Shown one piece after another: positions 6,001 to 9,000 of a DNA stretch of 26,877 nt. Origin of the DNA: a virus (Duplodnaviria; Heunggongvirae; Uroviricota; Caudoviricetes); IMG/VR virus record IMGVR_UViG_2718218104_000011; one strand, written 5' to 3'. The position numbers were made by a program. Each line of letters begins with the position of its first letter. Within the stretch, counting starts at the first letter, position 1.

Positions 6001-9000
6001 CCCCACCACGGTGGGAATTCTGTTTACGGCGTCTTCCGCCGCTATTCTGCTTTGTTCCGCTGACTGTGCGCTTTCTGCTGATTCCCGGGCTTTTTCTGTT
6101 GCGGTCGTTGCATCCCTGGCTGCATTACCGGCTGCACTTTCTGCCGTCTTTTTTGACAACTCGGCATCTGTTGCACTTTGTAATGACTCACTGGCTTTTT
6201 GAGCGGCCTCAGAGGCTGAGGACGAGGACGCTTCCTCTGACTTCTTTGCAGAGGCTGCACTTTCTGCCGCCTGCCGGGCTGACTCCGATGCATCCTCTGC
6301 TGAAGTATCAGCATTTGCGGCGCTCGCTTCCGCCTTACTGGCTGATATGCCGGCATTCCTCGCGGACGTCTCTGCTTCTCCGGCATTCTTCTTCGCCTCC
6401 TCTGCGTGACGCGCTGCTTCTTCCACCATCTGTTCAAAACGACGCAGTGCCTCCGGACGGGCATCATCCTCCGTCATGGCACCGAGAAAATCATTCAGCG
6501 TACCCGGTTGAGAATCTTCATACACGGAGATGGTCCCGGCATGTGATGGCGGGAATCCCTCCACCAACAGAGTGACGCTGTACTGACCATACTCGACGTC
6601 CATGCTGTAACGCCCTGCCTCATCCGGATTTTCAGAGGCCACCGTGTTCACCACCACCGTGGTGCTGTTACGTCTGGCTTTCAGTTGAATGGTGCAGTTC
6701 TGTATTGGTTTTCCCGCACCATCTTTCAGCACGCCTGATATTTGTACTGCTGCCATACCCACTCCACAAAAAAGCCCGCCTGAACCGGCGGGCTGTCATA
6801 ACGCTGTGTTACTAATCAAAATTTATAACCGACACCCACGATGAAACCGTCAGTGCGCCAGTCACCGCTGCCGGAGCCTTCATAAGCGACATCAACGGCC
6901 ACTGATTCGGTCGGGTTAAACTGCACGCCAGCCCCCCACGCCAGAGATGTGTTGCTGTAGCGAGCGTCATCACTTCCGGTCAGCACGTCGTGCGTTTTCC
7001 TCTTGTTGTCAGTTACGCGGAAATAATCCCCGGAAAAAGTCGACACACGGCTGTAAGCCACACCCGCCATCGCATACGCACTGAACCATTCATTCACACG
7101 CACAGACGGCCCTGCCATCACGCTGAACCAGCGGTTACGCACGTAATCCTCATGCCAGCGGGTATCGCTGTAATGCGTTTTTTGCTCATCTTCGGCGTTG
7201 GCATAACTGAAGGACGTAATCAGCCCCAGTGTGTCCGTAAACTCATAACGGTATTTCACGTTAATCCCGTTCAGATCATCGCTGCCGGGAGCGTCCGTAC
7301 TGGCATGAAGATATCCTGCGCTCAGCGTGGACTGATGCTCAGACGCCCATGCAGGCACACCGGATACGGCCAGACAAATGGCTGCGGACAAAATTGCTGC
7401 ACAAACTGAACCGCCCCGGAAATCCTGGAGACTAAACTCCCTGAGAAAGAGGTAAACAGGATGACTAAAAATACTCGTTTTTCCCCCGAAGTCCGTCAGC
7501 GGGCGATTCGTATGGTTCTGGAAAGTCAGGATGAATATGACTCACAGTGGGCGGCAATTTGTTCCATTGCCCCAAAGATTGGCTGTACGCCGGAGACTCT
7601 GCGTGTCTGGGTTCGCCAGCATGAGCGGGATACCGGGGGCGGTGATGGTGGGCTCACCAGCGCTGAACGTCAGCGTCTGAAAGAGCTGGAACGTGAAAAT
7701 CGTGAACTGCGCCGCAGTAACGATATCCTTCGCCAGGCTTCCGCTTATTTTGCGAAGGCGGAGTTCGACCGCCTCTGGAAAAAATGATGCCACTGCTGGA
7801 TAAGCTGCGTGAGCAGTACGGGGTCGGACCGGTATGCAGCGAACTGCATATTGCCCCGTCAACGTATTACCATTGTCAGCAACAGCGACATCATCCGGAT
7901 AAACGCAGTGCCCGTGCGCAGCACGACGACTGGCTGAAGAGAGAGATACAGCGCGTATACGATGAAAATCATCAGGTGTACGGTGTGCGTAAAGTCTGGC
8001 GTCAGTTGTTACGGGAAGGAATCAGGGTGGCCAGATGTACAGTGGCACGTCTCATGGCGGTTATGGGACTTGCCGGTGTTCTCCGGGGTAAAAAGGTCCG
8101 TACGACCATCAGCCGGAAAGCCGTTGCCGCAGGCGACCGCGTAAACCGTCAGTTCGTGGCAGAACGACCTGACCAGCTGTGGGTGGCTGATTTTACTTAC
8201 GTCAGCACATGGCAGGGCTTCGTCTATGTGGCGTTTATCATTGATGTGTTTGCCGGATACATCGTGGGGTGGCGGGTCTCATCGTCTATGGAAACGACAT
8301 TCGTGCTGGATGCGCTGGAGCAGGCGTTGTGGGCCCGTCGTCCGTCTGGCACCATCCATCACAGCGATAAAGGCTCTCAGTATGTGTCACTGGCCTATAC
8401 GGAGCGACTAAAAGAAGCCGGATTACTGGCATCAACAGGGAGTACAGGCGACTCGTATGACAACGCGATGGCTGAGAGCATCAATGGTCTTTACAAAGCG
8501 GAGGTAATACACCGTAAGAGCTGGAAAAACCGTGCAGAAGTGGAACTGGCCACACTAACGTGGGTGGACTGGTATAACAATCGACGATTGCTGGGAAGGC
8601 TGGGCCATACTCCTCCGGCAGAAGCAGAAAAAGCTTATTATGCTTCCATCGGAAACGATGATCTGGCAGCCTGAGTTCACAGATAAAACACTCTCCAGGA
8701 AACCCGGGGCGGTTCAATCACATCATCAAGAATTGCCATCAGAACCTCGCCAGCCGGTACCCGGGATGCCCCCGTCGTCGTGTAATCAGAGCCGCAAGGC
8801 GGCGCTCCCACTCCTGCCGTCCCTGCCGGATCTCAGATAAGTTTTCCATGGTCATCTGCTGACCATTAAAGGTGACGGATTTTCCGTCCAGCACCGCCAT
8901 TTCAGCTTCCGTATAACGCTGAATCATGGCTTCGATATCATTCTGGTTCATAACCATCCTCCGGAAGTCAGCCAGGGGTTAACATCGTCAGTTACTGTTT

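Follow-up and report, generated by a model that had tools for sequence, protein, structure and literature searches.

The window analysed here is a whole stretch of 26,877 bp, filed as IMG/VR virus record IMGVR_UViG_2718218104_000011, which agrees base for base with positions 3,735,024-3,761,900 of NZ_CP017446.1 (Escherichia coli O157:H7 strain 9234). By the RefSeq annotation it spans nearly the whole of a lambdoid prophage of the Sp3/CP-933K type situated at the site bioA-ybhB/ybhC. Reading from the left, one meets nleH1-1, nleC, nleB2, the tail fibre, lom, the terminase, the lysis genes and Q; further rightward come the nin region, bet/exo, xis, int and finally ybhC. The type is recognized by the ybhB-ybhC site, by the presence of nleB2, nleC, nleH1-1 and nleD, and by the absence of the immunity and replication region. 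Our subject is the place between lom and the terminase, where a complete copy of the insertion sequence (IS) IS629, the second of three in the window, directly adjoins two truncated genes. It is near certain that a deletion occurred at this place; in an intact relative the two sides are separated by 15,585 bp of head and tail genes. The joint is composed as follows (ORF, open reading frame; PGAP, Prokaryotic Genome Annotation Pipeline):

6816-7406, minus strand: remnant of lom (Ail/Lom outer-membrane protein); first 9 nt (ATG CGT AAA), ribosome-binding site and promoter gone
7407-8716, plus strand: IS629 copy 2, complete (1310 bp), no target-site duplication, marking the deletion joint
7407-7431, plus strand: left terminal inverted repeat of copy 2, 22/25 against the reverse complement of the right end
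7461-7787, plus strand: IS629 orfA, 108 aa, from the ORF list; joined to orfB by programmed frameshift in PGAP
7784-8674, plus strand: IS629 orfB, 296 aa, overlapping orfA; OrfAB transposase via -1 frameshift
8692-8716, plus strand: right terminal inverted repeat of copy 2, 22/25 pairing with the left end
8717-8739, minus strand: portal remnant of 23 nt, ATG GCA ATT CTT GAT GAT GTG AT (MAILDDV plus 2 nt), then the IS
8739-8957, minus strand: head-tail adaptor in gpW position, intact 72-aa ORF (70 aa in PGAP); PHROG 118, 1.4e-37

Three O157:H7 strains, F8492, Z1486 and NE 1169-1, also have this prophage in the bio-ybhB/ybhC locus, and in them the morphogenesis module is complete. In these relatives the adaptor gene is followed by the portal gene, and J is followed by lom; no relative shows the adaptor gene and lom naturally adjacent. 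In the relatives the flanks of copy 2 are collinear and equally oriented, with 15,585 bp between them in F8492; the distance of 16,898 bp seen in both Z1486 and NE 1169-1 is the same 15,585 bp plus one extra 1,313-bp IS insertion in each. Outside the IS copies, the flanks in the window are 99.6-100% identical to those of the intact relatives. What the window lacks is the portal gene from codon 8 on, a ClpP-like protease/major-capsid fusion, a DUF2190 gene, an FII-like gene, the homologues of Z, U, V, G, T, H, M, L, K, I and J, and finally the spacer between J and lom with the first 9 nt of lom. An earlier note on this DNA had claimed an IS-mediated deletion reaching from portal through J; the three intact relatives support this claim and confirm which genes are missing. 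Its size of ‘roughly 20 kb’ has to be replaced by the measured 15,585 bp. For comparison, the interval from B to lom in lambda is ∼16 kb.

At the left breakpoint all three intact relatives read CACAAAC/TTTACGCAT (a slash marks a breakpoint or junction here and below), which is the ATG CGT AAA of lom seen from the other strand. The window does not have these codons: the lom frame opens at GTT TGT GCA, in agreement with the earlier observation that lom begins without its start codon, and continues into the IS for at least 22 codons with neither a stop nor a start codon. What is left of the gene matches Pfam Ail_Lom with E = 9e-125 at profile positions 9-199 of 199. As the start codon, the first three codons (the charged beginning of the signal peptide), the ribosome-binding site and the upstream region are lost, the lom remnant is probably silent. 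PGAP/RefSeq gives the truncated lom as a normal coding sequence (CDS) of 579 nt (6816-7394, WP_072140989.1), with the start falling on an ATT codon. This annotation conceals the loss of the native start and of the signal-peptide N-terminus; as the description of an intact CDS in the genomes carrying the deletion it is probably wrong.

On the right side, the stop codon of the 72-aa minus-strand ORF (TGA, 8741-8739) overlaps an ATG (8739-8737) as TGATG. If the start chosen by PGAP is used, a GTG located 24 codons upstream, the portal remnant is 95 nt long. In the relatives the MAILDDV frame runs on as a portal protein of the lambda family (Pfam Phage_portal_2, E = 8e-74 in F8492), so the earlier interpretation of the overlapping ATG and MAILDDV as the portal start holds; in 3/3 intact relatives the right flank is preceded by ...AAAACGCCA/ATCACATC. 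The portal is annotated as two CDSs (375 aa and 111 aa; 26380-27961 of the F8492 locus) in every intact relative examined; the head module had thus been damaged before the deletion.

The label gpW, previously given to the 72-aa ORF, stood only in part. The gene has the expected position (between terminase and portal in the relatives) and the stop overlap, but no membership in the gpW family: at E <= 0.001 the ORF had no match to any Pfam family, gpW included. BLASTP, a weak test here, produced no alignment to lambda gpW. We dropped the label and, given the PHROG 118 match and the position, call the gene a head-tail adaptor.

The three IS629 copies are each 1310 bp long and 100% mutually identical, with the identity ending exactly at the 1310-bp bounds; the termini are imperfect inverted repeats of 25 nt (22 of 25 positions match) that begin TGAACCGCCCCGG. 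Since identity and inverted repeats stop at the same bounds, the IS boundary assignment cannot shift. PGAP names the copies IS3-like element, IS1203 family, and they have the features of the IS629/IS1203 type (IS3 family): a length of ∼1310 bp, imperfect terminal repeats of ∼25 bp, and overlapping orfA and orfB with a -1 frameshift; the identical RefSeq record annotates the transposase with a programmed frameshift and an AL1L pseudoknot. The interval 7392-8739 formerly assigned to copy 2 does contain the IS, but it also takes in 15 nt of lom and the 23-nt portal remnant. The two other copies in the window are:

4013-5322, plus strand: IS629 copy 1, simple insertion with TCC duplication in the gene for a tail-fibre C-terminal domain; same orientation as copy 2
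20163-21472, minus strand: IS629 copy 3, simple insertion with CCC duplication (plus strand) in a lambda-type exonuclease gene

As a simple insertion of IS629 we counted an element with a 3-bp (rarely 4-bp) direct target duplication on both sides. The flanks, read directly, are TCC/TCC for copy 1, CCC/CCC on the plus strand for copy 3 (GGG in the IS's own orientation), and AAC on the left and ATC on the right for copy 2, just as first reported. At copy 2 there is no duplication of 3, 4 or 5 bp, and no alternative boundary of the IS yields one; moreover, removal of copy 2 does not restore the uninterrupted sequence of a relative, where its flanks are far apart. Four more elements, all in related prophages, are simple insertions with perfect 3-bp duplications: TCC in F8492, GTC in NE 1169-1, GCC and GTC in Z1486. 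All are IS629 except one of the Z1486 elements, a variant with 95.3% identity. Thus, among the seven elements compared the duplication is missing only at copy 2, and adjoining DNA has been lost only at copy 2. The IS629-type elements in the loci of the relatives have the following coordinates:

F8492: 30495-31804
Z1486: 1223-2532 and 15779-17088
NE 1169-1: 18065-19374

IS629 copies without a duplication are common. In an unbiased sample of 35 unique full-length IS629 sites in IMG/VR proviruses, 25 had a 3-bp duplication, one a 4-bp and one a 5-bp duplication, and ∼8 (23%) had none; in four O157 genomes, matching duplications were found at 21 of 47 IS629 sites, leaving 26/47 without (Rump 2011, PMC3271280). 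We also considered a target consensus, A[NNC], seemingly shared by eight sites in Sp3 loci including both flanks of copy 2, and rejected it as a small-sample artefact: the third duplicated base of the 25 IMG/VR sites with a 3-bp duplication was C in 7, T in 10, A in 5 and G in 3. The eight-site set, in addition, mixed strand orientation for copy 3, which inflated the apparent consensus.

The distribution of the structure was determined with probes of 240 bp across each real junction of copy 2 in 5,426 complete E. coli genomes. Both junctions were complete in the same eight genomes only (9234, 4276, 2159, 2149, 1130, Gim1-1, NE92 and NCCP 13918); one IMG/VR provirus contig also bears both. Seven of the carriers are bovine (five of them named USA cattle-hide isolates) and one, NCCP 13918, is human. 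On the other hand, 1,865 genomes had the uninterrupted site between W and portal complete, and 3,861 had the J-lom site complete and uninterrupted. With the junctions present in eight genomes and the uninterrupted sites in thousands, the deleted state must be a derived and rare one, passed on within a single small clade. Over the 23 kb shared with the relatives there are 0-3 single-nucleotide polymorphisms (SNPs) per segment outside the tail-fibre repeats, so a local SNP phylogeny is too poor to place the sister lineage.

Copy 1 is absent from seven of the eight deletion carriers; therefore, it entered strain 9234, the only carrier that has it, after the deletion. The copy 3 junction occurs in no genome beyond the eight that have the deletion, and thus copy 3 does not bracket the deletion as a marker of a wider clade. 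Strain PV15-279 has an independent IS629 insertion in the same exo gene, ∼100 bp from the position of copy 3.

If the region between copy 2 flanks had been moved elsewhere, reciprocal junctions should be visible. We joined the portal side, ATC and the left end of the IS to the right end of the IS, AAC and the start of lom into one synthetic query; it found no reciprocal (lost) junction in the 5,426 genomes. The parental junctions predicted from the flanks are AAAACGCCAATC/TGAACCGCCCCGG at the portal site and CCGGGGCGGTTCA/AACTTTACGCATAA at the lom site; exact-pattern scans of IMG/VR and the JGI metagenomes for the predicted lost junctions came back empty. With a complete IS, flanks that are collinear but non-adjacent in the relatives and no reciprocal junctions, the structure is that of an IS-bounded deletion. 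Three explanations would dispense with a deletion: adaptor and lom are neighbours in a native or mosaic architecture, the module has been translocated, or the assembly has collapsed across the IS copies. None of our observations spoke for any of them. Both genes are cut exactly at the IS ends; the near-identical flanks sit at the same locus as in the intact relatives; a translocation should have left its reciprocal junctions in some genome; and the occurrence of the same structure in eight independent complete closed assemblies (besides the IMG/VR contig) rules out assembly collapse. We regard these explanations as effectively refuted.

As to how the deletion came about, we lean, without great confidence, towards recombination between two directly oriented IS629 copies. 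The first step would be insertion of IS629 at one of the sites, either at codon 3/4 of lom (duplicating AAC) or at codon 8 of portal (duplicating ATC). A second IS629 would then transpose to the other site in the same prophage and in the same orientation. Homologous recombination of the two 1.3-kb direct repeats would finally loop out the interval and one of the two IS copies, and the product would be a single hybrid IS with one half of each duplication at its sides.

We favour this route because repeated IS629 insertions facing the same way show that the needed substrate exists. Prophages of the Sp3 type have been struck by IS629 repeatedly: at two tail-fibre sites, in the FII-like gene (the 95%-identical variant), and in the DUF2190, Nu1-like and exo genes. 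Of eight oriented IS629-type elements at eight different sites in Sp3-type loci, seven face like copy 2, antisense to late-gene transcription; the only reversed one is copy 3 (the exo insertion of PV15-279 is outside this orientation count). Direct pairs exist as well: Z1486 has two direct elements 13 kb apart, one of them the 95% variant, and in strain 9234 copies 1 and 2 are direct and 2.1 kb apart. IS150, also an IS3-family element, gives a laboratory parallel. In the E. coli long-term evolution experiment, ∼70% of large rearrangements were homologous recombination between IS copies, and the rbs deletions adjacent to IS150 were ascribed to IS-IS recombination (PMC4173774). The rbs case is like ours in that a complete IS was left behind, dispensable DNA was lost and one IS remained without matching duplication; it is unlike ours in that the ancestor was known and the events could be tracked experimentally, whereas both parent insertions postulated here are unsampled.

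Several points weigh against the recombination route. It requires a single branch to have gone through three events. The two parental insertions, each flanked by its duplication, were seen together in none of the 5,426 genomes, nor in IMG/VR or the JGI metagenomes, and the same collections were empty of a single-insertion intermediate, with IS629 at the lom or the portal site alone. This absence of sampled intermediates does not exclude the route. Furthermore, all IS629 copies are identical, making a hybrid IS unrecognisable, and a one-ended deletion mediated by the transposase predicts an identical scar with one event fewer; the sequence of the scar cannot, taken by itself, tell the two IS-mediated routes apart.

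In that second route, a single IS629 would have inserted at the lom or the portal site, and later its transposase would have joined one IS end to a remote site of the same molecule, deleting the interval and keeping the IS complete; the pathway could be one-ended, ‘sloppy’ or by a tandem junction, with or without host factors. Such an adjacent deletion is a tenable explanation, though we would not expect it to be the right one. Two events suffice, which fits the lack of a two-copy intermediate, and both breakpoints are exactly at IS termini. In plasmid assays, IS3 transposase gives deletions from either the left or the right inverted repeat with the IS fully kept (PMC8860574); these results are, however, compatible with a local hop followed by recombination. 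IS629-adjacent deletions of a few nt to >40 kb have been reported in O157 (Kusumoto 2011, as cited in PMC9943667). On the other hand, copy-out-paste-in transposition regenerates the donor, and loss of a flank needs an extra reaction (Chandler-group preprint 10.1101/2023.06.07.543989). The deletions linked to IEE are described, in secondary sources, as accompanying IS excision, whereas copy 2 is complete.

The gene iee is present in O157:H7 Sakai (ECs_1305). The adjacent deletions of IS3-family elements and the IEE-enhanced excisions and deletions of IS629 (Kusumoto 2011; PMC9943667; PMC8860574) start precisely at an IS terminus, as ours does, and can exceed 40 kb. By the published descriptions, IEE-type events excise all or part of the IS; here there is no IS-free joint, and copy 2, complete to the last base at both ends, has undergone no loss, whole or partial, of the kind that marks an excision-coupled deletion.

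The breakpoints, 7406/7407 and 8716/8717, are both at an extreme 5′-end: lom is cut after its first 9 nt, portal after its first 23. The placement looks non-random, but the observation is post hoc, and no such tendency is seen in the other insertions examined. One could speculate that the scar records a one-step intramolecular event catalysed by the IS629 transposase, with endpoints reflecting a real preference for extreme 5′ gene ends; we consider this unlikely. If it were true, the eight-genome clade would be a natural record of a one-ended IS3-family deletion of >15 kb in which the IS was kept.

A last route would start from an IS629 inside the head-tail module and proceed by two successive one-sided losses, leftward to lom and rightward to portal. 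An element of this kind does exist: the near-identical strains NE 1169-1 and NE1127 carry IS629 (duplication GTC) in the DUF2190 gene, within the deleted region and in the same orientation. We set it aside as the ancestral IS, since the insertion is private to 2 of the 5,426 genomes, and there is no sign that the ancestor of the eight-genome clade had it. At least three events would be needed, and the junction probes found no half-deleted form in the 5,426 genomes; we judge two such losses very improbable.

Whichever of the IS-mediated routes was taken, with recombination between direct IS629 copies as our preference, the event is an ordinary IS629-bounded prophage deletion of a kind already known. 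Earlier work already names IS629 as a major cause of inactivated genes and of deletions in O157 genomes. The 2009 survey by Ooka et al. (Genome Res 19:1809) is said to have found structural polymorphisms due to IS629 in O157 and to credit the element with inactivating genes, deleting genomic DNA and immobilising phages that enter. Our case is like the O157 system of that survey in element, organism and prophage bias; unlike its ‘small-size’ polymorphisms, the Sp3 deletion is larger (15.6 kb) and confined to a clade of eight genomes. The literature reviewed, in which Ooka 2009 and Kusumoto 2011 were represented by papers citing them, made no mention of the 15.6-kb Sp3 deletion. Another deletion from bovine O157:H7 strains, FRIK1275 and FRIK1625, removed 47.7 kb between prophages by recombination between direct repeats; those repeats are 822-bp phage sequences, in contrast to the IS copies considered here (PMC7430833).

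Sp3 of strain Sakai has been classed as defective: it has neither a repressor nor replication functions, both portal and integrase are disrupted, and there was no circularisation, replication or packaging (PMC2669165). We infer that the deletion is a further decay of a prophage type already defective in related strains. The genes removed were probably useless already, because Sakai Sp3 does not excise, replicate or package and the portal of the relatives is already split. The terminase, the adaptor, the side tail fibre and the downstream genes for type III secretion system effectors (nleB2, nleC, nleH1-1) would have come through the deletion intact. It is thus one more case of IS629 eroding O157:H7 prophages while the virulence cargo (nleB2, nleC, nleH1-1 and nleD) stays.

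The importance of the deletion is slight beyond bookkeeping. Its two junction sequences make a clean clade marker for the eight complete genomes. The direct copies 1 and 2 of strain 9234 could next delete lom and the tail-fibre gene, and this pair is a ready-made substrate for gauging how far such deletions depend on recA, transposase or IEE.

The remaining genes next to the joint, on its two sides, are the following:

5503-6762, minus strand: side tail-fibre gene, retained downstream of lom; Pfam phage_tail_N, Collagen, Phage_fiber_C
8948-11050, minus strand: terminase large subunit of gpA type, 700 aa, intact; Pfam GpA_ATPase, GpA_nuclease
11050-11541, minus strand: DUF1441 protein in Nu1 (small terminase) position, 163 aa, intact; Pfam DUF1441, 4.6e-44

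The side tail-fibre gene differs in length between strains: it has 1254 nt here and in strain 4276, and 1317 nt in F8492 and NE 1169-1. The sole SNP-rich stretch of the prophage is around its collagen-like repeats (window positions 5323-5870 compared with F8492, Z1486 and NE 1169-1).

The genes ninE (19102-19284, minus strand) and a truncated bet that has lost its N-terminus (19314-19985, plus strand) are only ∼30 nt apart (∼19285-19313); there is no IS at this joint, and the whole immunity and replication region, from gam to ninB in lambda terms, is gone. This deletion is older, being common to all Sp3-type relatives examined, and agrees with the published Sp3, which is without repressor and replication functions. 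The integrase gene (24389-25459) is an intact ORF of 356 aa in the clade of the window, while in NE 1169-1 it is annotated as frameshifted (37515-38581 of its locus) and in Sakai Sp3 it is disrupted; hence the deletion clade is no simple descendant of those lineages.

A direct repeat of 77 nt with 70% identity (906-982 and 3837-3913) is situated immediately upstream of nleH1-1 and nleB2; it holds a GC-rich hairpin and then a T run, and may be a terminator or 5′ leader module shared by the effector cassettes. Finally, the stretch between the Q and nin regions holds a moron on the opposite strand, a gene for a lipid A deacylase of the LpxR family (16489-17448).

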